A model generated the notes under the pieces. The model saw only the letters and a program-made list of their open reading frames with translations. It searched no databases and had not been told where the DNA came from. Below, one piece after another: positions 9,860 through 40,013 of a DNA stretch of 50,590 bases. The position numbers and the translations under genes were made by a program. How positions within the stretch are numbered: the first letter of the stretch is position 1; the number at the start of each line of letters is the position of its first letter. The stretch comes from an uncultured bacterium (GTDB lineage Bacteria > B130-G9): positions 1 through 50,590 of the forward strand of contig CBDVDH010000025.1 of the NCBI GenBank assembly GCA_965372715.1, given 5' to 3'.

Positions 9860-10912
9860 CTAGGGCGAACCCGGCGAACTGCCGGGCAGAAACTGACCGA
9901 ACCCCTTTGAATGCCATTGCTCACGGTCCGCATCGACAATAAGGGCCTCGACCTCCGTGAGGAGATCGACTAGCTCAAGACCGCGCTTCGGTCCCATTAC
10001 AAAGACCGCCGTGGCCAGAGCGTCCGCCACCGTGGCCTCCTGGGCAACAACAGTTACGCTCTGGCACGCCTCGGCCGGATAACCCGTCGTCGGGTCAAGA
10101 ACATGATGATACCTCTTTCCATTGTACTCAAAGAATCGCTCATAATCGCCCGACGTAACAACAGCACGGTCCGTCAAAAACAGAGTGTACATCAACTCCC
10201 CCGGGCGCCTCGGATGTTTGACTCCAATCCGCCATCTCTCGCCATTGAGCCGCCTCCCGGAAACGAACATATCCCCGCCCGCGTTCACGATGAAATTGTG
10301 CACGCCCGCGCCTACGAGAGCTCTGGCGGCAACGTCGATGGCATAGCCCTTGGCCAGCCCGCCGAGATCGAGCCTCATCCCCCTCATCGGCAAACGGACG
10401 GTTCCCGAAGTCGCCGAAACCTCAACCCGGGTGTAGTCAACGTTCCGAAGGTTTCTTGCGATAGCGTCGGGCTGGGGAGGCTTGGCGCTGTTTTCTGATG
10501 CGAAGTCCCAAAGGTGATAGACCGCGCCAATCGTTACGTCGAAGGCGCCTCCGCTGAGCTCTGACACCTGCCTTGCGCTGTCGAGAACTGAAATCAATGA
10601 GGCCGGGGCCGCTACCTGCGTCTGTCCCGCCGACTCGTTGATCCTCTGGATGACGCTTCCGTCGATGTTGACTGACATCTCGCTCTCGACCCGGCGAATC
10701 TCATCAAAAGCCTCTTGGATGGCGCGCCTCAGACCCGAATCGTCGAGCTGTTCAGCCCAGGCCTGTATCTCGACAAGGGTGCCAAGCATGAGATTATCAA
10801 CTTTGACGACCGTTGGCTCGTCCGTGAATCCCTCATGCAGAATCGAAACCAGAACGATCGAGGCGATGGCGACGAAAACCAAGAGAAACCAGAACGAGTG
10901 GGCGTGCCTCAT
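9860..10912 (-). CDS. apbE: FAD:protein FMN transferase
   Basis: LGTLV, GAFDVTIG, DLGGLAKGY, NAGGD, TSGDYERFF, HHVLDPTTGYP, ADALATA; N-terminal anchor. Confidence 0.93.
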   Translation of the reverse strand: MRHAHSFWFLLVFVAIASIVLVSILHEGFTDEPTVVKVDNLMLGTLVEIQAWAEQLDDSGLRRAIQEAFDEIRRVESEMSVNIDGSVIQRINESAGQTQVAAPASLISVLDSARQVSELSGGAFDVTIGAVYHLWDFASENSAKPPQPDAIARNLRNVDYTRVEVSATSGTVRLPMRGMRLDLGGLAKGYAIDVAARALVGAGVHNFIVNAGGDMFVSGRRLNGERWRIGVKHPRRPGELMYTLFLTDRAVVTSGDYERFFEYNGKRYHHVLDPTTGYPAEACQSVTVVAQEATVADALATAVFVMGPKRGLELVDLLTEVEALIVDADREQWHSKGFGQFLPGSSPGSP

Positions 10913-11196
10913 CAGATCAGGGCTCTCCCTGTCGCGCAGAGCGCGGCATCTCGTTAATGTGGGGGGCCAGAGGTATGCGTGGAGCTCTCTCTGGATACAG
11001 TCTTAATGCAATGGTGATACAACTGCGAGCCGGGATGAGCGGCGCGGTCGAATGCCCAGACGCCTCGATTGATTGTCGCATTAGCATTTACGATTGATTT
11101 CGCTACAGCTTGGTATCCGGCGAATCTTCGTCCTAGGGCCATCGACAGCGACAACATTGCACCTACAACAGGCCTTGATGTGCTGTGCCCCGGAGA

Positions 11197-11619
11197 TTAC
11201 CTGCCCACCTCCGGATGACACCTGACGCTTCCCTTTATCTTCAGGTCCCTGATCCGGCACATCGCTCTTTTTCGCAGCGCCAGGTTGCTCCTGTGCAGAA
11301 GCGCGATCTTCTTCCAGCATGTCATCGCTTTTCTGAACTCGCCTCGCCGCTCATACAGCGCAGCGATGACCATTGTGGTTCTTGACACGTCGCCCATTGG
11401 AAGGGCCGGATAGCCGGGCCGGGGTTCCTCCTGAGCGCCCAAAAGCCTTTTCTCAACCGCCGACCGCTTTATTGAGGCCCGAACGTCCTCCTCAAAAAGC
11501 ACCACCGCCCGCGAGTGGCAATCCCCGCTGCAATACGTGTAGCCCGCCTCCGCAACCATCTTCCTCATATCGCGGATCGGCCGATGACAGAACGCACAAT
11601 ACGTAGGCACAGGCCTCAC
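11197..11619 (-). CDS. Hypothetical protein with CxxC...YCSxxC treble-clef zinc finger and one TPR-like repeat
   Basis: YCAFCHRPI...YCSGDC; IAALYERRGEFRKAMTCWKK. Confidence 0.6.
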   Translation of the reverse strand: MRPVPTYCAFCHRPIRDMRKMVAEAGYTYCSGDCHSRAVVLFEEDVRASIKRSAVEKRLLGAQEEPRPGYPALPMGDVSRTTMVIAALYERRGEFRKAMTCWKKIALLHRSNLALRKRAMCRIRDLKIKGSVRCHPEVGR

Positions 11620-30116: not shown

Positions 30117-30293
30117 TTTTGGACTGCGTCCGCCGCGCGGCGGATTTCTTTGGCGGTGACCTGGCATCGCCTTCTCCAGACCACTCTGCTGGACCTGAAT
30201 CCGACAAATTGAAGAATGACGAATGATTGATTCAATGAGATGCCGCGTCAGGCCGCGGCAAATGAAAGCGGCGTCGAGCCACCGCACTCCAAA
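30117..30293. repeat. Degenerate REP-like doublet (TTGGAGTGCG family)
   Basis: Left ttttggactgcg..., right ...aaagcggcgtcgagccaccgcactccaaa; the right arm recurs at 43363-43395. Confidence 0.55.
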
Positions 30294-30336
30294 GCACTCA
30301 ATGGCTTCAGAGCACAAATCCGTGGTCATCGGGTGC

Positions 30337-32808
30337 TCAGGACTCATCCCCCGATCCGCCGCGGTCGCGCGCAAGCAGTATCTCAATCGCGGCGCGCTGT
30401 GCGGCGCGTCTTAGGTAGAAATCGAAGGGCTCGAGGCCCTTGCTCTGGTATTCCGCGACCTTCATCAGAGCGTCCAGGAACTCCGTCTCACCCAATCGAC
30501 CCAGGAACTCCGCCGCGACGATGCGGTCCTTGAAGTCGCCCTGCATAAGAACGTTCTTGAGACGCTTCTTGGCCTTCTCGTTGCCCAACACGGCCGCCGG
30601 GTAAGAGATGAAGAACAGCTGTTGATAGTCCTTGTCCGAATGCGCCGGAGAGAAACCGACGTACTCGCTGTCGAGCCCGCGGAACCTCGACATGATAGTC
30701 CTCTCTGCTTTCGCGGCATCACTCATTTCTGCTAGCGCGATCGCCCCTTCCTTGCCCACTTCGGGATGCCTTTGCATTAGATGTACGATTCTCTTTGCGG
30801 AATCAGCATGACGAAGCTTGCCCAGCGAGAGCATACAGCCCCGCAAGACCACCGTGCTGCTCTCGGTCTCAAGCATCTTGTGGAGGCGCTCAGCAACGTC
30901 ATCCGCCAGCTCGCAGGGGCCCAGTTCGTCGGCCAGACTGCCCAGCGACTGTGCTGCGTATGCCCTAAGAGCGGCGCTTGCATCGTCTAGCACGCCCATA
31001 ATCAGCCGCACCGCCTCGTCGCCGCCCATCTTGACGAGCGACTGGGCCGCGCTCTCTCGAACATTGCGGTCCGTGCCTAAAATCGCCTCGGTAAGCGCCG
31101 GCAGGGCCTTGCGATCGATGGCGGCCAGAGCGTCCTTTGCCGACGAACGCACGAGCCTGTTCCTGTCACCAAGCATCCCCACCAGTGCATCGATGACAGC
31201 GTCTGATGCGATTGGTTTCTTGGCGCATATATCGGCCGCGCGCCTCTTAATTCGGCTGTCCGAGTGGGAAAGGAGTCCCAGCAGGACAGGCTCCGGAACC
31301 GATTCTCGGACATACCACAGAACGTAGGCCGCCCGCAGGGCCGTCTGGTCCTCATCCGACTTGGCGGCCTTCAACAGCTCGTCGAACATCTGATTTCGAC
31401 CAGTTTGATAGAGCGCAAATTGACAATGAAGCCTGACGATCGGGTCCGCCTCGGTCTTGAGCATGTTCTCCGCCAATTGCTCGACCGCTGGGTCTGACAG
31501 GAAAGCAAGCGCCAGCATAGCCTGCGAACGCACGAACGTGTCCTCGGACTTCAGCGCAGAAACAACCGACTGCTTGGCCTTGACGCCCAGGTCCGCGAGG
31601 CCGCGTATCACGAAGTAGTCGTAGTAGCCGGCGGACGCCGACCTCAGGAGGGCCTGAGCCGCGACCGTGTTGTCGATGTACGAGAGGCCCATCAGAGCGT
31701 ACTTCCTCGCCCTGGGCTGTTGGCCATCTACGACGACGAGCGACTTTGAGTCGGCCGCGATTACGGTCTCGAGATACCGAACTGTCTCGGTCACGAACTC
31801 ATTGTCTTCGCCTTCCTGCTTCACGGCGGACAGGAATGAGCGAGGTGTGTATCTGCCCGGCTGGACGTAGTCGCTATCCTGACGCCTTGCTATGGCCGTG
31901 AGCTCCGCGCCCAAGAGCGCATTTGATATGAGCTCCATCTCCTCGCCGATGATGTCAGGCAAGTCCTTGAAATAAAGCGTCGTCAGCGCCTTGTCGTGAT
32001 CGCTGTAGATGTCCTGTTGGACGTAGTTCGTGCAGTAGTAGGTCATGTATCTTGCGAGGGAGTTGGCCTCGGCGGCAATGGCAGCTCTTAGGTCTTCTCG
32101 CTCGACGAAATGGAGCACCAACTGCTCCATCTTCTTCGCAAGTTCGATACTGTTTTCGCTCGATGCGGAAAGAGACACAAAGGCGGAAGTCCCCTTCATC
32201 GCTACGAGACCCTTCACGGCCTCGGCGCGAACCGCCGGGTCGGGGTCTTCGGTCGCGTCCTTCAACGCCTTCGCGGCCGCCTCGGTGTTCATCCCCGAAA
32301 GAATCCTGATCGCTTGCAGCCGGTTTGCAGCGAACTTGTCCGTGAGCGCAAAAGCCAGCGCCGGGATAGTGTCCGGAGATTGTAGCCGACCGAGCATATC
32401 GATGCCCATCGCGCGAAACCTCTGAACCTCCGACCGAAGCAGCGCCTCGGCAGCGGCCACATCTTTGATCCGGCCGAGCGCGGACGCCGCAGCCCGCTGC
32501 ACGTCCTCCCGCCCGTCGCCAAGCAGCTTCTCGAGGTCGGGGATGGCCTCCACCGCGCCGCTCTTGGCCAGAGCGTCCGCCGCGGCGATAATCACCCTCT
32601 GATGCGGGTCGTAAAGCGCCTTGACCAGCGCATCGATATAAACATCGCCCTTCATGCCCGCGAGTTTCTTTGCGGCCCGTTCTTTCGCAGCAGGGCCCTT
32701 GCTTCCGAGAAGCGTTACGACGTGCGCGTAGGGGTTCGGGGCACAGCCCACAAGCATAGCCAAAACCACCAGCGCCGAAAGAGCCTTAACCAATCTAATC
32801 TTAAACAT
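30337..32808 (-). CDS. HEAT/PBS-lyase repeat lipoprotein
   Basis: Lipobox LVG-C after a basic/hydrophobic signal; many D-x-x-V-R-x-x-A-A-x-A-L-G repeats. Confidence 0.85.
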   Translation of the reverse strand: MFKIRLVKALSALVVLAMLVGCAPNPYAHVVTLLGSKGPAAKERAAKKLAGMKGDVYIDALVKALYDPHQRVIIAAADALAKSGAVEAIPDLEKLLGDGREDVQRAAASALGRIKDVAAAEALLRSEVQRFRAMGIDMLGRLQSPDTIPALAFALTDKFAANRLQAIRILSGMNTEAAAKALKDATEDPDPAVRAEAVKGLVAMKGTSAFVSLSASSENSIELAKKMEQLVLHFVEREDLRAAIAAEANSLARYMTYYCTNYVQQDIYSDHDKALTTLYFKDLPDIIGEEMELISNALLGAELTAIARRQDSDYVQPGRYTPRSFLSAVKQEGEDNEFVTETVRYLETVIAADSKSLVVVDGQQPRARKYALMGLSYIDNTVAAQALLRSASAGYYDYFVIRGLADLGVKAKQSVVSALKSEDTFVRSQAMLALAFLSDPAVEQLAENMLKTEADPIVRLHCQFALYQTGRNQMFDELLKAAKSDEDQTALRAAYVLWYVRESVPEPVLLGLLSHSDSRIKRRAADICAKKPIASDAVIDALVGMLGDRNRLVRSSAKDALAAIDRKALPALTEAILGTDRNVRESAAQSLVKMGGDEAVRLIMGVLDDASAALRAYAAQSLGSLADELGPCELADDVAERLHKMLETESSTVVLRGCMLSLGKLRHADSAKRIVHLMQRHPEVGKEGAIALAEMSDAAKAERTIMSRFRGLDSEYVGFSPAHSDKDYQQLFFISYPAAVLGNEKAKKRLKNVLMQGDFKDRIVAAEFLGRLGETEFLDALMKVAEYQSKGLEPFDFYLRRAAQRAAIEILLARDRGGSGDES

Positions 32809-32841
32809 TGACCACCTCGTTGAATTGATTGCAGAAAATCG

Positions 32842-33666
32842 CTATTGCAGCAGGAACCGACTGCGGCCCTTTGAGCCCTCGACGACCATGTTAATAGCGC
32901 CGGTCTCAAGAGGCTCCCAAGCCACCTCGATGCCCTTCCCGCTGAGCATCTTGCGCAGTTGCATGAATATATCAAAGCCCGAAGGCCGAACAACAAACGC
33001 CACATATTCCTTCGTTGGGTCTATGCCCTCGATCTCCGCCCGCCAGTCGGACGATTTGTCCCCTATCTGCTCCAGCGTCTCGCCCGGCCGACGCCGAATC
33101 ACGATGCTGCTCCCGCCGACGCCCTTTGTTACGTAATACTTGCGAACGTACCGCCCAAAGAACGGATTGACCTTGTCGTCCTCACACTCGAAGTACAGCG
33201 CCCGCTTCTCGCTGGCCTTCTGGACGGGCGTTCCCACCTTGAGCTCGCGCTTTCTGATCGTGAAGTCGCCAGGCACGAGCGCCCGAAGACTCTCTAGCTC
33301 ATCCTGTTCCTGAAGCTCCTCCTTCTCCAACCTCTTGAGGCGCGCCGAAAACTCCGTCACATAATCCTCGAGCTCCTTTCTGAGCGACAGGTCCTCCGTC
33401 AGCTTCTCGAGGCGCTCGATCGTCTCCCTTGCCTGGCGCTTCTCGTCGGCCTCCTCCTTGCGCTTGCCGAGCTCCTTGTCTAGCTTTGAAAGGTCGAAGC
33501 TCAGGCCAGAAAGCTGCGTCCGAAGCGGCAACGGGGCGCTCATCCCGAGCGTGTGCAGAATGATGATCGCGATCATGAAAACCAGCACGCCGACCGTGCA
33601 AGCTAGAATATCGAGAAAAGAAAAACTGAAAAAACCAATCTCAGAAGAGCTGGATGACCGTGCCAA
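32842..33666 (-). CDS. ExbD/TolR-like single-TM coiled-coil protein (TM Asp present)
   Basis: FSFLDILACTVGVLVF TM, long coiled coil, C-domain LYFECE...YVAFVVRPSG...WEPL. Confidence 0.65.
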   Translation of the reverse strand: MARSSSSSEIGFFSFSFLDILACTVGVLVFMIAIIILHTLGMSAPLPLRTQLSGLSFDLSKLDKELGKRKEEADEKRQARETIERLEKLTEDLSLRKELEDYVTEFSARLKRLEKEELQEQDELESLRALVPGDFTIRKRELKVGTPVQKASEKRALYFECEDDKVNPFFGRYVRKYYVTKGVGGSSIVIRRRPGETLEQIGDKSSDWRAEIEGIDPTKEYVAFVVRPSGFDIFMQLRKMLSGKGIEVAWEPLETGAINMVVEGSKGRSRFLLQ

Positions 33667-33692
33667 CTACAAGAACCCCCAACTAATGCAGC

Positions 33693-34448
33693 TCACGAGA
33701 AAAAAAGCTCCCACTGTTCCAGAATCGGCTCGTAACCAACCTTGAAGCCCGACATCTCAGAAAGGTCGCGGAGCACATCGAACGTCGCGATCCCCGATGG
33801 CCGTATCAGGAAAACAACATAATTGCCTGGGGCCTTTACCCCAGAGGACGAAAGCCAATCCTCAAACGAAGCTGCGTCGAGCTCCCCCTGGGCCATCGCA
33901 ACGACTGTCCCGACAGGCCAGACGACCGCCTCGTTCTCCCGGCACTCCACGTAAATCGGCTTTGAAAGGCCAGGGGCCTGCGAGTGCCTCACCTCCGCTA
34001 CGACCGACCTGCTGGCCTTCAGCATTGCCGCCTTCTTCCGCAGATCATCGAGCTCCGACAGGCGCTTTTCATCGGGCTTCTCGCGTCTCGCAAGAAGCGT
34101 CTGAAGGCGCTCCTTTTCGCGCTCCAGCTGAGCCAACCGCCGCTGAAGCTCGGCGAGCTCGGCGCTGAGGTCCTTCATCTCGGGGATTTCCTTGTCGGCG
34201 AGAAACTCAGAGTCCTTCTGCAATTGCTCCTCGAGCCGCAGAAGCTCCGCCTCCTTCAGCTCGACCTGACTCTTGCTGCCAAGAATCTCCTTCTCGATCG
34301 CGGAAGTATCGACCAGGTCCTTGCTGTGAGCGATAAAGATGAAAAGGATGAACGCCAGCGAGCCGATTATGCACGACAGAACCGCCATGAACGGAAAATG
34401 CAGAACCTCGACCTGCCGGTCCGACGCCGACCTTCTGGGCTTGCCCAC
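33693..34448 (-). CDS. ExbD/TolR-like single-TM coiled-coil protein (TM Asp replaced by Ala), paralog of 32842-33666
   Basis: FPFMAVLSCIIGSLAFI TM, coiled coil, IYVECR...YVVFLIRPSG...YEPI; RBS AAGGAGG before GTG. Confidence 0.65.
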   Translation of the reverse strand: MGKPRRSASDRQVEVLHFPFMAVLSCIIGSLAFILFIFIAHSKDLVDTSAIEKEILGSKSQVELKEAELLRLEEQLQKDSEFLADKEIPEMKDLSAELAELQRRLAQLEREKERLQTLLARREKPDEKRLSELDDLRKKAAMLKASRSVVAEVRHSQAPGLSKPIYVECRENEAVVWPVGTVVAMAQGELDAASFEDWLSSSGVKAPGNYVVFLIRPSGIATFDVLRDLSEMSGFKVGYEPILEQWELFFS

Positions 34449-34721
34449 AGCCTACTTAACCTCCTTGAGACATAGCTATAGTGTCGGACTCATGCCAAGA
34501 GATTCATCGTGTCAGAACGCATTCACAATCGTCAAATCCCAAGCAAAGGCCAAGCAGAACGAACCGAATACTGGATATGACCCGCCAACTAACTTATCTC
34601 ATAAACACATTCTAAGTGCCAAATGTTGCCGGGCTTGACACGCCTCGGGCTTTGTGCAGAGAATCTCGAAGTTAGAGCGTGAAAGACACAGAATTAATGT
34701 CGAGCTAGATGAAGGAACGAC

Positions 34722-35243
34722 ATGGCAGTAGTGGGGCTGATACTGATCACTTTGTGGGGTCTGGCGTCCGGGATATGGATGCTGCGATATGGCCTCAGAG
34801 AACAGAGCTGGTTCTGGGCTTTGTGGGGAGCTTGGGGCGTTTTCGGGGCCATCCTTATTGGGATTGTGTTGCTCGGGGTTGCTGTAATTACGTTCCTCCT
34901 ATTCATGCCCACAATGGACCCAACCATATCAGTGGGCATTGTTTTGATCGTGTGGGTCGCGGTTGCCTTCTTCGCTTTCAGGTATAAGCATAATCTTCTC
35001 GGCAAGGCGCTTTTTGTCCTCGCCGCGCTCTGGTCGGGCGTCCTGTCTATCCCGCTAATCGCATTTCTCCGTTGGGGAACTGCCGAAGCACTGCTGATGA
35101 CGATGGGCCTGTCCGCCCTCGTCCTCATTGTCTGGGGATTGACCATGAAGCAAGCGAAGGCAGCCAAGGTGCGCAAAGAGGCACTCTACAAGCGCCTGTT
35201 GGACGAGGTCGATACCCGCGAGAAGCCACCCTGGGAATCATGA
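34722..35243 (+). CDS. Polytopic membrane protein with conserved KEALYKRL..EVDTREKPPWES tail, paralog A
   Basis: About 5 TMs; RBS GAAGGA; tail nearly identical to the next gene. Confidence 0.8.
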   Translation: MAVVGLILITLWGLASGIWMLRYGLREQSWFWALWGAWGVFGAILIGIVLLGVAVITFLLFMPTMDPTISVGIVLIVWVAVAFFAFRYKHNLLGKALFVLAALWSGVLSIPLIAFLRWGTAEALLMTMGLSALVLIVWGLTMKQAKAAKVRKEALYKRLLDEVDTREKPPWES

Positions 35244-35401
35244 TGTTCCACAGTAACATCAGCCAATGATCGTCTCCGCGACTCGCAAACCTCACCGTCC
35301 TCATTCTGACCTCGCCTGTGAGCTTGACAATGGACGGCATTTCCGCGAATGTTCTAGAGACAATCGGTTCCGTTAATACATTCCGGGATTCCAGATGCGC
35401 T

Positions 35402-35938
35402 ATGACGCCCAGTGACGCTCCGCACATATTCATGGGCTGCATACTAATCCCGCTCGGACTTTTGGGGTTCTTCTGCTTTCTGATTCACATCGGGATAAGA
35501 AAGGACAACGACGCGCTGGCAATAGGCTCGGGGCTAGCTCTAATAATGATTGGCCTGCCGGCTATCTTCTTAGCCCCTGGTTACCTCGGCTTTTTCCTGG
35601 AGCGGACATTCCTCCTCACCTGCTGGTATATCGTTATGGGGATTGTCTGGTTATTCCTGGCCTTCTTCGGGCTCAAGCGTTCGGACGAGAAGAAGGGCAA
35701 GGCCTTGATTATATTCGCGATAATCTGGACTTTCCCGATGACATACCCCCTGACCGCTGAATGGGAATGGTCAACCGCAAAGGCCTATCTGACGGTATTC
35801 GGCCTCACCGCGCTGGGCTATATCATCCTCGGCATCATACTCAAGTCGATAAAGGCCGCCAAAAGACGAAAGGAAGCCCTCTACAAGCGCCTGCAAGAGG
35901 AGGTCGATACCCGCGAGAAGCCCCCGTGGGAATCATGA
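35402..35938 (+). CDS. Polytopic membrane protein with the same tail, paralog B
   Basis: Aligns with A (IVW..AFF..GKAL..W..PL..W.TA.A..GL.AL); start ATG 35402 chosen by length match. Confidence 0.8.
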   Translation: MTPSDAPHIFMGCILIPLGLLGFFCFLIHIGIRKDNDALAIGSGLALIMIGLPAIFLAPGYLGFFLERTFLLTCWYIVMGIVWLFLAFFGLKRSDEKKGKALIIFAIIWTFPMTYPLTAEWEWSTAKAYLTVFGLTALGYIILGIILKSIKAAKRRKEALYKRLQEEVDTREKPPWES

Positions 35939-35986
35939 TGTTGCATATCAACGTCAGCCGATCACTGTCGAACAGACAAAGGTGAC

Positions 35987-36454
35987 ATGGGGCAGGCGTT
36001 GACAATACGAAGGTTCAGCAGGACTCTGCAAAGAATAAGAGAGCATCTGAGGGCAAATCGCGAGAAAAATACCGAGAGCAAGGCCCTGATGACATACGCT
36101 TTCTTTGTCGCGGGGGTATGGTGGCTTGTCTCGGTGTTCGCCGTCTTCGTGTGCTATGTGATTGCTTCGCTCGTTTGGGATATGAGGCTCTCGCTTTGGC
36201 CGGCTTTGACCATCTCGTCCGCAATCTGGATTGTCCTCGCCGTCAAAGCGCACAGGAGAGGCTACACCGACCTATGCAGATTCCGCCTCGAGGTCGCCTT
36301 CCTGCTTTCTCTCATGCTCCTCATGTCGCTCCAGCCGCTATTCGATCTCTCCAAGACCACCGGCTACCTACTGGTCGTCCTGTTCACGACAATTTGGGCT
36401 GTGGTTCATTTGTCGGTGCGCCGTACCAGAAAGAACCGCCCGCGAAAGGGATAA
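35987..36454 (+). CDS. 4-TM membrane protein, probable distant paralog C lacking the tail
   Basis: RBS AAAGGTG; ungapped 48-aa alignment with B keeps W1, L4, A5, R11, A24, L35, S42, Y47, L48. Confidence 0.68.
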   Translation: MGQALTIRRFSRTLQRIREHLRANREKNTESKALMTYAFFVAGVWWLVSVFAVFVCYVIASLVWDMRLSLWPALTISSAIWIVLAVKAHRRGYTDLCRFRLEVAFLLSLMLLMSLQPLFDLSKTTGYLLVVLFTTIWAVVHLSVRRTRKNRPRKG

Positions 36455-36465
36455 GGCCAGCGTCT

Positions 36466-37011
36466 TTAGTAGAAATAACCGCGGAAAAACCAGGGGACCA
36501 TGACAGCGCTTAGGACGTTAATCGCTATATAAATCGCGGGGCCGAATTTCCCCGGTATCAGGGGCAGGTCCGATGCGCGCGCAAATGAACGCAAGGCTAT
36601 TCTCACATGCAGTTTAGGTCTTTCACTGGCAGCGCTCTCTCCGGCGCGCATCTCAGTAGCTCGGATGTTCCACTGCAGTTCGTCACTAATCTCCAGAAAT
36701 AGGACGTCACCGAACCTCCGCAGACGCTCAAAAGATGTGGCGATTATCAGCACGGCAGAGGCAAGCAACAGCGCCACCACTATCGCTGGCGGCAGTAATG
36801 AGCCTTGAATGAAGAACGAAATTAGCACAATAACAGGTAATAAGACTATATTTAAACCAGTCATTCCGACGATTAGCTGACCCCTTTTAGTTAGTTTTGA
36901 CGAAATCCAGCGGAGATTACCAAGCGATGAATCGAGATCAGGGGTCTCTCGTGGAATCTTGATGGCATGAGTCGGTTTGGACTCGCTCCGGATTTCTGGA
37001 TTGCTCATCAC
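36466..37011 (-). CDS. 3-TM membrane protein of unknown function, coupled to the GTPase
   Basis: Junction AAAGGA-TAA-GTG-ATG; two TMs, a soluble helical loop and a C-terminal TM; low GC. Confidence 0.8.
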   Translation of the reverse strand: MMSNPEIRSESKPTHAIKIPRETPDLDSSLGNLRWISSKLTKRGQLIVGMTGLNIVLLPVIVLISFFIQGSLLPPAIVVALLLASAVLIIATSFERLRRFGDVLFLEISDELQWNIRATEMRAGESAASERPKLHVRIALRSFARASDLPLIPGKFGPAIYIAINVLSAVMVPWFFRGYFY

Positions 37012-37776
37012 TTATCCTTTGCCTACGACCTCAAGGAGGCTTTGAAGCATATGCGACCTCAACATATTCCTATCAGAATCATCAAAGGCCCCGGACAACC
37101 GACCTTCACCAAAGAATCTATGACATACAGAGCAATACGGCAACACAATAGGACCGAGGCTCTTTGCGTCACCCAGTGATTCGGAGTATGAGCCCGACTT
37201 GTAATACTCAAGAACCTCATCTTTCCTGTCCCACCAAAGGTCAGCTTTGTTCACAACGGTAATCATCCACCCCGTCGTCCTTCTGTCCCCGAGGATCGTT
37301 GTCCACTCATCTAGATAGGTCTTCTCAATCTCTCGGTGCTTCTCAAGGAAATCAGCCTTCACATTACCATCAGAATCAATGGCCTCATTCTTGCCCGTCC
37401 TACCCTCATGATATCCATAGGACGCTACATTGATTATCCCACTGACGCCTTTGCCGAGAGCGCTCCTAATGGCATCCATGCGAAGAGGCTTGCTCTCGTG
37501 CTCTCCAGGTGTGTCGATTATCTTGAATGCCTTATCCATGTTCCTTATAGAATGGGATTTAACTGACTGCGTGCGGCACAGATGATGTATCGCCGGCGGC
37601 ATAAACTCCGTGAATGATCTTATCATCTGCGTCTTCCCGGTTCCGGTGGCCCCGAGAACGAGAACACCATCGGTTTTCTTAAACAGGTCGCAGAACCTTT
37701 CCAGAAGCCCGCTCTTGACAGCGATTAGAGCGAGTTGTGTGAGAAGTTCCTCCATCCCGCCATCGACCATCTTCAT
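37012..37776 (-). CDS. Stand-alone TRAFAC-type P-loop GTPase
   Basis: G1 GATGTGKT, G2 RT, G3 DTPG, G4 NKAD, G5-like YCS; RBS AAAGGAG. Confidence 0.88.
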   Translation of the reverse strand: MKMVDGGMEELLTQLALIAVKSGLLERFCDLFKKTDGVLVLGATGTGKTQMIRSFTEFMPPAIHHLCRTQSVKSHSIRNMDKAFKIIDTPGEHESKPLRMDAIRSALGKGVSGIINVASYGYHEGRTGKNEAIDSDGNVKADFLEKHREIEKTYLDEWTTILGDRRTTGWMITVVNKADLWWDRKDEVLEYYKSGSYSESLGDAKSLGPIVLPYCSVCHRFFGEGRLSGAFDDSDRNMLRSHMLQSLLEVVGKG

Positions 37777-37806
37777 CTCCTTTAATTATCCCAAAACTCC
37801 ACAATT

Positions 37807-37815
37807 GTTATAGCA
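37807..37815 (-). promoter_or_regulatory. Extended -10 promoter element for the GTPase operon
   Basis: TGCTATAAC on the minus strand, 30 bp upstream of the ATG, in AT-rich DNA. Confidence 0.45.
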
Positions 37816-37962
37816 TAGCCACCGGATTATTGAAACCCTCTATAAAATGGGCGGACTTCCCCCCCAATTGACTCGACCCAGCCGCTGCCCTATATTTCAC
37901 CCTTATTGACGCAGCACGGCTAAGTATCCGACTTTTACTTTCTGGAGTGTAGAAACAGAGCG

Positions 37963-39288
37963 ATGAGAGCAAGGACATTTCCGGGTGGGATACATCCACC
38001 AGAGTATAAATACCTGAGTGAGAAGAAGCCCATTGAGCGGGTCGAGGCGCCGGAGCTCGTTGTTATTCCGCTGTCGCAGCATATCGGCGCGCCGTGTAAG
38101 GTCGTCGTCAACGTGGGCGACGAGGTGAAGATGGGACAAGTGATTGGCGAGGCGCAGGGCTTCGTGTCGGTTCCGGTTCATTCGAGCGTTTCGGGCAAGG
38201 TCAAGGCCATCGGGCCGTTTCAGCATCCGCTTGGCGACGTGCAGCCGGCGATAACGATCGAGAACGACGGAAAAGACGACGCGGTCGATCCGCTCGAGCC
38301 TTTCGACGACATCGCAAGCGTTGAGCCGAAGAAACTCATCGCGCGCATCTGCGAGCTCGGCGTGGTGGGGATGGGCGGCGCGGCGTTTCCGACGCACGTG
38401 AAGCTCTCTCCGCCGAAAGAAAAGCCCATCGACACGGTGATCCTGAACGGGACGGAGTGCGAGCCATTCCTGACCGCCGACCATCGGCTGATGCTGGAGC
38501 ACCCAGGTAGGATTATCAAAGGCTTCCAGGTGGTCGCGCACATTCTCGATGCTTGCCGTGCGATTATCGGCATCGAAGGCAACAAGCCAGACGCCATCAA
38601 GGTGATGCGGGATTCACTGAACGGTTCGGGCAGCATCGAGGTCGCAGAGCTGATCGTCAAATACCCGCAGGGCGGCGAGAAGCAGCTGATACAGGCGCTC
38701 ACAAATCGCGAGGTTCCGCCTCCGCCGGGTCTGCCGATGGACGTCGGCGTGGTCGTTCAGAACGTCGGGACCGCCGCCGCGATTGCCGACGCGGTATTCG
38801 AGGGCAGGCCGCTCATCGAGCGAGTTACGACCGTGACCGGAAGCGGCGTCAAGGAGCCGAAGAATCTCCTCGTCCGAGTCGGGACGCTGGCATCGCAGCT
38901 AGTCAAGCAGTGTGGCGGCTACAACGGCGAGATTGGCAAGTTCATACTCGGCGGGCCGATGATGGGCATCGCGCAGAGCACCGACGAGGTTCCCGCGTGC
39001 AAGGGCACGTCAGGCGTGCTGGTGCTCACGAAGGACGATACGATCATCCGCGAGCCTGAGCCGTGCATCAGATGCGGCAGATGCGTTGACGCATGTCCAA
39101 TTCACCTCAGAGCGTATCACATTGGGGCCCTTGTGGAGCAGGATCGGCTCGACGACGCCGAGAAGGAATCTGTGCTCGATTGCATAGAGTGCGGCGGTTG
39201 TGCCTACGTATGCCCAGCGTCGCGCTGGCTGGTGCATCTTTTCAAGAGCGCGAAGGCGCAGATAATGGCCAGAAAGCGCAAGAAATAG
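37963..39288 (+). CDS. rnfC: Rnf/Rsx electron transport complex subunit C
   Basis: [51 protein letters not shown], two 4Fe-4S motifs [12 protein letters not shown] and [12 protein letters not shown]. Confidence 0.95.
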
Positions 39289-39341
39289 GAGACCCCGAGC
39301 ATTCCCATTTGACACCACAAGCCATTTTAGGAGGTCATCAA

Positions 39342-40013
39342 GTGAAGTTCTTCGTCGATACAGCTGACGTTTCTCAGATAAGAGCCGCCAAGGAGATGGG
39401 GCTCGCGGATGGCGTTACGACCAATCCATCGCTCGTGTCCAAGGTTGGAATGCGGGCTCCCGGCCGCGGTTTTCGTGAAACGCTCAAGGAGATATGCGAG
39501 ATCGTCAAGCCCGGTCCCGTGAGCGCCGAAGTAATAAGCCTCGAGGCCGACAAGATGGTTGACGAGGCGCGGCGGCTCGCGGAGATCGCCGACAATATCG
39601 TGATCAAAATCCCGATGACGAGCGACGGTATGAAGGCCGTCCGTATCCTTGAGAAGGAGGACATCAGGACGAACGTTACGTTGATATTCTCCGCCAACCA
39701 GGGCCTCTTGGCGTGCAAGGCCGGCGCCTCGTTCATGTCGCCGTTTATCGGGCGGCTGGACGACATCGGGCACAATGGGATGGAGCTCGTTGCGGAGCTC
39801 CTTGAGATAACCGGCGCCTACGGCTTCGACACGGAGGTTATTGTGGCCAGCATCCGCCACCCCGGCCACGTGAAGGAGGCGGCGCTTTTGGGCGCGGACA
39901 TAGCAACGATACCGTTCGCGGTGATGGAAAAGCTCTTCAAGCACACGCTGACCGATGTGGGCATCGAGCGCTTCCTCGCCGACTGGGAAAAGGTCCCCGA
40001 CAAGAGCTTCTAG
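39342..40013 (+). CDS. tal: Transaldolase, small TalC/FSA-like family
   Basis: GTG 39342 with [37 protein letters not shown] has Phe (transaldolase) rather than Tyr (FSA). Confidence 0.9.

Follow-up and report, generated by a model that had tools for sequence, protein, structure and literature searches.

A mobile two-gene module pairing a small GTPase with a three-transmembrane protein, each of an unnamed family

Two adjacent genes, encoding a small GTPase and a protein with three transmembrane (TM) segments, were studied on a contig of an uncultured bacterium (GTDB lineage B130-G9; assembly GCA_965372715.1, contig CBDVDH010000025.1), of which the whole stretch of 50,590 nucleotides (nt) that was analysed is referred to here as the window. 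The GTPase gene and the gene of its membrane partner form an obligate, translationally coupled pair that is horizontally mobile, and neither product belongs to a known family. We tentatively read this pair as a self-contained, mobile two-gene module that may act in conflict, that is in defence or in the exclusion of incoming elements, because it is rare, mobile, subject to decay and in one genome present in two copies, has deeply diverged alleles at a variable site and is found in a few defence contexts and in three that are conjugative.

An obligate, translationally coupled pair

Scanning 185,579 species genomes (one genome per species), we recovered 51 loci with relatives of the GTPase. A hidden Markov model (HMM) of the partner family matches the open reading frame (ORF) directly downstream of the GTPase gene at 37 of these 51 loci, and at 35 of the 37 the interval between the GTPase stop and the partner start lies between -32 and +21 nt, mostly as an overlap of 4 or 8 nt. 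Thirteen of the 14 loci without an HMM match were inspected, L051 having no GTPase ORF: eight, mostly from Bacteroidota, encode in the same position a divergent small protein with two or three TM segments, one encodes a single-TM protein, two lie at a contig edge (L045 being one) and two, L026 of Tateyamaria and L038, have no partner. For Tateyamaria, no partner was found anywhere in the genome. Among 124 GTPase relatives on metagenome contigs, 80 were kept; 66 of these have at least 300 nt downstream, and at 64 of the 66 the partner gene adjoins the GTPase gene. The earlier note had presented the two genes as one operon, and the linkage in both collections goes far beyond chance. As a separate observation, L045 (7513-9023), at the end of a contig in a Tepidisphaeraceae bin, carries two tandem paralogous GTPase genes, the second in the place of the partner gene.

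Clustering of all ORFs from 130 loci revealed no third recurring gene, the next clusters being antisense ORFs lying over the GTPase gene. The absence of a roadblock partner had also been remarked on from the sequence, and indeed no roadblock domain was found in a Pfam scan of the neighbours in the window, the only recurring neighbour being the 3-TM protein; the adjacent roadblock/LC7 partner that goes with MglA/MglB and conservon-type GTPases is thus missing here. Both genes of the pair are under purifying selection, with ratios of nonsynonymous to synonymous divergence (dN/dS) of 0.11-0.28. In two Bacteroidales loci, L037 (2329-2511) and L040 (2546-2725), a protein of about 60 amino acids (aa) made of three CCHC zinc knuckles is encoded directly 3' of the partner gene, followed in L037 by a 1099-aa protein matching the PADLOC candidates PDC-M28B/C.

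Prediction of a complex from the GTPase and partner alignments gave "weak support" (score 0.33 against 0.00 for the best control) and is not used as evidence here. That mark is reached by 58 of 80 solved complexes and by 2 of 110 mismatched pairs, and only 7 of those 80 have a score of 0.60 or less; the runs share at least 71% of contacts, and the partner has a predicted local distance difference test score (pLDDT) of at least 70.

Two families outside current models

The GTPase motifs are intact, as had been read from the sequence: G1 (GATGTGKT, residues 42-49), G3 (DTPG, 88-91) and G4 (NKAD, 176-179), together with Arg68-Thr69 of switch I and a likely G5 (C215-S216-V217), are all conserved across the family, which has in addition two motifs of its own, INVxSYGYHE (115-124) and NKADLWW (176-182). 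In Pfam, the window protein passes the cut-off marginally for MMR_HSR1 (PF01926; E 1.1e-4, 22.7 bits, cut-off 21.9), a generic G-domain model that assigns no function; SRPRB remains under its cut-off (E 0.083, 12.7 bits, cut-off 25), Arf is not listed, and no NCBIfam cut-off is passed. At E≤1e-3, MMR_HSR1 matches 47 of the 51 family members (best E 3.9e-11), RsgA_GTPase 20, SRPRB 10 and Arf 6. When the family profile was compared with PDB sequences, only the G1-G3 half of EngA, Toc, TrmE, Arl, Rab and similar proteins was matched. The protein had been set apart from the named housekeeping families Era, EngA/B, Obg, FeoB and MglA, and this placement stands, MMR_HSR1 being the only match at threshold.

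The AlphaFold2 (AF2) model of the GTPase (pLDDT 89, predicted template-modelling score (pTM) 0.86) shows a canonical G domain preceded by two helices and followed by a long C-terminal helix, with an insert after strand 4 (about residues 118-139) that bears the invariant SYGYHE motif. Its closest fold neighbours are Arl2 (9edr_G; Z 17.0, root-mean-square deviation 4.0, 179 residues aligned), the Asgard Rag-like LokiRagO (8yl2; 17.0), RagD (16.7), Arf6 (16.4) and SR-beta (16.2), which Rab, Ras and translation-factor G domains trail by only 2-3 Z units (14-15). Foldseek likewise returns membrane-associated switches at E of about 1e-7 and lists GIMAP7 and Toc34 as well, and in the ESM Atlas the clusters of the family itself (0.96-0.98) are followed by bacterial Arf-like clusters (0.92). 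On these models and motifs, we classify the protein as a TRAFAC GTPase of an unnamed family, with motifs resembling those of Era and Toc and a fold leaning towards Arf, SR-beta and Rag.

The likeness to Arf/Arl, Sar, SR-beta and Rag/Gtr consists of the fold (Z 16-17) and of a helical N-terminal extension before strand 1, and this fold placement is not specific, since Z falls gradually. The window GTPase differs from these proteins in its G3, DTPG[Q/E], where Arf has WDxGGQ, in its G1, GxxGxGKT, in the extra SYGYHE insert and in having a separate 3-TM partner unlike any known receptor, and by the Pfam gathering thresholds it does not belong to the Arf, Sar or SR-beta families. With Era, EngA, TrmE and the Toc and GIMAP GTPases it has DTPG and NKxD in common, but the sequence match covers only the N-terminal half, there is no KH or other accessory domain, and both genomic context and distribution are accessory, not core. 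Toc34 and the GIMAPs are membrane-anchored, whereas in the window family the anchor is supplied in trans.

Three hydrophobic segments in the partner, at about residues 44-67, 75-93 and 157-174 (180-aa numbering), agree with the three TM helices first proposed. Its AF2 model (pLDDT 87.8, pTM 0.78) consists of a long hairpin (23-66 and 72-121), a short helix (133-145) and a C-terminal helix (156-179). The predicted periplasmic loop has only about 7 residues and the cytoplasmic ends of the TM segments are flanked by basic residues, which suggests a topology with the N-terminus inside, the C-terminus outside and almost nothing exposed to the exterior; the partner would therefore not be an extracellular sensor. 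In the family alignment, conservation peaks in the cytoplasmic juxtamembrane parts (mean column entropy 1.2-1.8 bits), with the consensus motifs GDxLFEEISDELQW right after TM2 and LRSFAxAxDLPLxPGxxGP before TM3, and the TM helices are variable (2.8-3.5 bits).

No match to the partner was found in Pfam, NCBIfam, PADLOC or PHROGs, nor any of 0.9 or above in the ESM Atlas. Using its family profile on 1.84 billion representatives, we obtained 683 clusters at E≤1e-3, of which 604 pass 1e-10 and 212 pass 1e-30, with nearly all representatives between 130 and 205 aa. Fusions with the GTPase were looked for among the best 150 representatives, and the two that exceed about 205 aa, with an N- or C-terminal extension, are not GTPase fusions. 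A 292-aa family member, P0064, has an N-terminal extension of about 135 aa that, on reading its sequence, resembles HEAT/PBS-lyase repeats. A fold search of the TM protein, for which SLATT and Pycsar effectors had been named as possible relatives, gave no informative match to any solved structure (these effectors were not compared by name): only generic helical bundles were returned, with a best Foldseek E of 0.15 and a best VIA-align Z of 12.5, under the level of about 13 that is uninformative for helical proteins. ClyA and IpaB appear among the rows at a Z of only about 9 and are not counted as evidence.

Since neither protein has a specific family match, the locus might be thought to hold no functional unit, only a decayed GTPase gene that happens to lie next to a spurious hydrophobic ORF. 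This is already refuted by the occurrence of the same pair at more than 100 independent loci, by its dN/dS, by the confidence of both AF2 models and by the 604 partner clusters at E≤1e-10. A more serious rival is an accessory membrane switch with no part in conflict, in which a 3-TM receptor would recruit the GTPase for the regulation of envelope stress, protein targeting or lipid and membrane homeostasis, as a niche-adaptive trait. In its favour, the closest folds (Arl2, Rag, Arf6, SR-beta and Sar1, Z 15.5-17) are membrane-associated switches, the first named Atlas clusters beyond the family are those of bacterial Arf-like proteins, the TM helices of the partner lack conserved polar residues, as expected of an anchor, and both genes are kept by purifying selection. 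We nevertheless consider it rather unlikely, for reasons that lie in the distribution of the pair.

Distribution, mobility and the variable site

The 51 genome loci are scattered over about nine phyla, including Acidobacteriota, Pseudomonadota, Bacteroidota, Actinomycetota, Planctomycetota, Chloroflexota, Thermodesulfobacteriota and Hydrogenedentes. The GTPase is present in one of seven genomes of the phylum of the window, this one being its own, in none of six other genomes of its family and in one of 151 Paraburkholderia species genomes. A quick tree of the GTPase requires 12 changes of phylum label, against a minimum of 6 and a mean of 24.5 after shuffling, the exceptions being Paraburkholderia, Methylococcaceae, Dehalococcoidia and Hydrogenedentes placed among Acidobacteriota. 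Horizontal acquisition, which the earlier note had proposed, is borne out by this rare and patchy occurrence and by an empty site in a genome of the same genus (G001, see below).

Four of 72,556 plasmid records match, three of them strongly; three of the four are copies of the Rhodococcus plasmid pDK4 (L054), on which the pair stands between genes for a TraM-recognition (type IV coupling) protein and a MobF relaxase. In Rothia sp. ARF10, genes for a type IV restriction enzyme and a TrwC relaxase come after the pair, and in Asaia the pair adjoins an IS5-type transposase gene. No match was obtained by tblastn in 50,697 phage records, none of 21 pattern matches in the IMG/VR viral contigs was confirmed as a relative, and no PHROGs family matched the GTPase, the partner or the neighbouring ORF155 at E≤0.01. 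RefSeq annotates the pDK4 partner gene as a 128-aa hypothetical protein (10887-11273), which is too short; the family HMM supports an ORF of 182 aa that starts at 10725, 5 nt after the GTPase gene, and ends at 11273.

One Hydrogenedentes bin contains two divergent copies (L023 and L030), and some copies are decaying: in L049 a transposase gene lies within the GTPase gene, and L021 and L024 are frameshifted. Broken GTPase genes stand beside an intact partner gene in L021 and in Coatesbacteria (P0020/P0022), where a GTPase fragment remains. These cases and the GTPases without a partner come mostly from metagenome bins, in which frameshifts may be assembly errors. An accessory physiological switch fits poorly with a module so rare and patchy, carried by conjugative elements, broken by an insertion sequence or frameshifts (L049, L021, L024), present as two divergent copies in one genome and linked to no conserved client gene.

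The same observations call for another explanation to be weighed, namely a selfish addiction module of the toxin-antitoxin kind, or an accessory module of mobile elements, in which a toxic membrane protein would be regulated by the GTPase and would stabilise its carrier or exclude competitors. The compact layout of the operon, in which the stop codon of one gene overlaps the start codon of the other, its solitary insertion between unrelated genes, its position within the pDK4 transfer region and, elsewhere, beside a relaxase or transposase gene, and the occasional decay of copies all accord with it. However, intact partners persist beside broken GTPase genes (L021 and P0020/P0022) and orphan GTPases exist (Tateyamaria and L038), which together argue against a strict toxin-antitoxin dependence; with so few plasmid records carrying the pair as well, we regard this explanation as improbable.

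In the window, the pair occupies a site that differs between close relatives (Table 1). Blastn aligns window positions 30283-35931 with the same-genus genome G001 at 89.9% identity and positions 37862-39971 at 91.3%, and the block in between, which contains ORF155, the partner gene and the GTPase gene and ends on the right at 37861, is absent from G001; no convincing direct repeats flank the insertion. In the same-family genome G003 (L144, G003:C48, 1574-5252), the gene directly upstream of rnfC encodes a type IIG restriction-modification enzyme of 961 aa (PADLOC REase_MTase_IIG, E 3.8e-186) and is followed by a gene for a 270-aa hydrophobic protein; in G002, housekeeping genes of the recR region lie upstream of rnfC. 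The content upstream of rnfC thus varies among relatives, so that this is a variable site, with defence cargo in at least one relative.

Table 1. Features of the window at and near the site of the pair
Feature	Positions	Strand	Basis or remark
GTPase gene	37012-37776	minus	254-aa ORF and its translation; TRAFAC-class small GTPase, unnamed family
Partner gene	36466-37011	minus	181-aa ORF; 3-TM protein, unnamed family
Operon leader with AAGGAG ribosome-binding site	37777-37861	minus	sequence; boundary from comparison with G001
Inserted block, about 1.9 kb	35932-37861		counterpart in G001 is 167 bp, flanked by the p206 gene and rnfC
ORF155, predicted multi-TM, convergent with the pair	35987-36454	plus	no family match passing threshold
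p173 gene, multi-TM protein	34722-35243	plus	173 aa; tandem paralogue of p206
p206 gene, multi-TM protein	35318-35938	plus	206 aa; tandem paralogue of p173
First coiled-coil gene	32842-33666	minus	N-terminal TM and coiled coil
Second coiled-coil gene	33693-34448	minus	N-terminal TM and coiled coil

Two metagenome contigs, L063 and L064, are syntenic with the window and carry the pair at the same site (Table 2). In L064 the flanking proteins are close to those of the window and both module proteins are far more diverged, with a partner dN/dS of 0.11. By their saturated synonymous divergence (dS), the L064 alleles of the module predate the split of their hosts by far, which indicates allele replacement or a long-kept polymorphism, not merely fast protein evolution. 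L063 is a mosaic in its nucleotide sequence: identity to the window is 82-86% in rnfC and 53-72% in the 5' two-thirds of the GTPase gene, and 92-100% across the 3' end of the GTPase gene, the partner gene and the end of ORF155, a pattern that stems from recent recombination or else from a chimeric assembly. Deep divergence of alleles within one locus, together with presence and absence among close relatives, is again not what a physiological switch would lead one to expect.

Table 2. Divergence of the syntenic contigs from the window
Comparison	L064	L063
Transaldolase, aa identity	94%	not covered
RnfC, aa identity	91%	89%
GTPase, aa identity	60%	70%
Partner, aa identity	44%	97%
Flanking genes, dS	0.33-0.72	0.64 (rnfC)
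GTPase, dS	not computable (saturated)	1.34
Partner, dS	4.76	0.045

ORF155 was considered as a third component and ruled out: its only homologue is in L063 (84% identity over 80 aa), with none at the other loci, which excludes it from the conserved module.

At the locus itself, the two ORFs are contiguous with the junction TAA-GTG, exactly as first described, and the products are slightly shorter than had been given. Identical database proteins have 252 aa (GTPase) and 180 aa (partner), and these lengths, together with the positions of the ribosome-binding sites, place the true starts probably two codons further in for the GTPase, at ATG 37770, 6 nt past AAGGAG, and one codon further in for the partner, at ATG 37008, 3 nt past TAA and preceded by AAAGGA. 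Of the promoter and strong ribosome-binding site attributed to the operon, the latter is present as this AAGGAG upstream of the GTPase gene and the former was not recovered, as a scan for sigma-70-like promoters gave three sites in the region (1.9 expected), none of which lies ahead of the GTPase gene on the minus strand. The content of guanine plus cytosine is lower than in rnfC, as claimed, though by less than the 35-47% against 75% first quoted: 300-nt windows covering 36600-37949 have values of 0.47-0.50, compared with 0.59-0.65 in rnfC and about 0.60 to the left, a drop of some 10-15 points below the flanks. No tRNA gene was found in the window. A look-up of sequencing runs returned one DNA run, with a small share (0.09), and no RNA run, and bears on neither expression nor habitat.

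Left of the inserted block, the tandem paralogues p173 and p206, which have no family match passing threshold, end in a common C-terminal tail, ...KEALYKRL..EVDTREKPPWES, and their identities to the G001 proteins are 56% and 76%; dS is 1.09 for p173 and 0.63 for p206, where the flanking genes have only 0.08-0.26. The two coiled-coil genes further left are adjacent distant paralogues (about 25% identity by tblastn), and the second has weak matches, far under the cut-offs, to PRK09039, a "peptidoglycan-binding protein".

A possible role in conflict and its relation to known systems

The earlier note put the pair forward as a candidate new defence system, and we consider this a reasonable hypothesis, not an established finding. 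Its neighbourhood was surveyed with the two nearest ORFs on each side at 49 loci (162 proteins, no matched control being run). Among these are a retron RT-Toprim protein, identified by its size and sequence as the 562-aa ORF upstream of the pair in L005, a type IV restriction enzyme in L022, the PDC-M28B/C-like protein in L037, a CBASS-type cyclase at one locus and two proteins, at two loci, matching mad3. Defence genes are perhaps a few-fold more frequent than chance would give, and the association is suggestive only.

Several points weigh against a conflict role. The enrichment in defence islands that had been suggested is weak, most of the 162 neighbours being housekeeping genes (thiC, selA, pheS/pheT, trmD, lgt, lepA among them) and only a handful matching defence models. 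Among the matches listed, no Pfam family is found in more than 2 of 82 or 80 neighbour proteins, and PADLOC matches at E≤1e-10 come from about five or six of the 49 loci; the PD-T4-6/mad6 match in L008 is a single Ser/Thr kinase and may be generic. The GTPase gene lies between pheS and pheT in L028 (6749-11672, with the partner) and in L038 (6964-11159, without it), which is unusual for a defence system and, like the housekeeping neighbours in general, agrees with a physiological switch; this placement fits a tolerated insertion into an operon better than it fits an island. To these points must be added the partial clustering by phylum in the GTPase tree, by which not all of the spread would be recent transfer, and the mosaic of L063, which could be a chimeric metagenome assembly. 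L028 and L038 are both alphaproteobacterial loci, and in L019 pheT is also found directly downstream.

If the pair does act in conflict, the GTPase may serve as a nucleotide-dependent switch that docks on the conserved cytoplasmic face of its partner, made up of the N-terminal helix, the EEISDELQW helix continuing TM2 and the DLPLIPG segment before TM3. In its docked state it would control the activity of the partner at the membrane, through oligomerisation or membrane perturbation, and the module would act against phages or other mobile elements by abortive infection or by exclusion of incoming DNA. The direction of this control is suggested by the copies that combine a broken GTPase gene with an intact partner gene (L021 and P0020/P0022): the partner alone is therefore probably harmless, and if it is not obviously lethal on its own, the GTPase more likely activates than restrains it. 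In its fullest form, which we put forward with marked reserve, the pair would be a new mobile immune or exclusion system in which an Arf/SR-beta-like GTPase senses a cue from an invader, docks on the partner and triggers membrane failure or a block of DNA entry, and the diverged alleles would be the trace of an arms race.

Two-gene abortive infection systems that combine a cytoplasmic sensor with a membrane effector are represented by RexAB and by the retron, CBASS (cyclic oligonucleotide-based anti-phage signalling system) and Pycsar systems with TM effectors. The present module resembles them in logic, in that the gene of a soluble switch or sensor is coupled to that of a small multi-TM protein and both travel as mobile cargo, but no homology to them was detected (no significant PADLOC match and no fold match of the partner) and its switch is a GTPase. 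Its absence from known defence systems, also anticipated in the earlier note, was upheld for PADLOC-DB v2.0.0, in which the partner matches no family and the best row for the GTPase is LeoA (E 7.4e-4, 16.7 bits, a model of 559 positions) with no stretch qualifying. LeoA belongs to Eleos (LeoA/LeoBC, dynamin-like), a GTPase-dependent defence according to the preprint of Millman et al. The window GTPase differs from LeoA in its length of 254 aa and in lacking a dynamin stalk, and it scores 13 bits against NCBIfam DLP_LeoA_gen, whose cut-off is 325.

A TRAFAC GTPase has already been proposed as a switch of conflict systems, often near the membrane, in the work on the DO-GTPase (Kaur et al. 2020, PMC7159879), which defines this group by glutamate in Walker B, by a partner, GAP1, and by zinc ribbons that are frequent at the N-terminus. 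The present family resembles the DO-GTPase in being of the TRAFAC class and in the two tandem paralogous GTPase genes of L045, and differs in having Asp in DTPG, of which P and G are invariant, and no zinc ribbon; that GAP1 is absent here rests on the lack of a recurring third gene. In full-text searches of the literature we found no description of the pair, which the supplementary tables of PMC7159879 and of defence-discovery screens may list.

The module is of a known kind in its logic, that of an NTPase switch with a membrane protein as mobile cargo, and it is made up of two unnamed families. It joins an unclassified GTPase family to a membrane protein family of about 600 clusters (at 50% identity) that has no model in Pfam, NCBIfam, PADLOC or PHROGs, and the site that it occupies in the window is empty in some close relatives and holds another allele or a gene for restriction-modification in others. 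Eukaryotes use small Ras-like GTPases as their standard membrane switches, and few are understood in bacteria; to our knowledge, a bacterial small GTPase that gates a dedicated membrane protein within a mobile unit of two genes is not known. The module has several carriers in culture (Paraburkholderia sp. HD33-4, Asaia bogorensis IPC-01, Henriciella barbarensis CCUG66934, Rothia sp. ARF10 and, on pDK4, Rhodococcus sp. DK17), so that the question can be put directly to experiment. If the pair is a defence or exclusion system, it would bring a new sensor-effector logic and, should the immune role proposed above be true, the first membrane effector gated by a small GTPase in prokaryotic immunity; if it is not defence, it would offer a compact bacterial model of receptor-bound GTPase switching.

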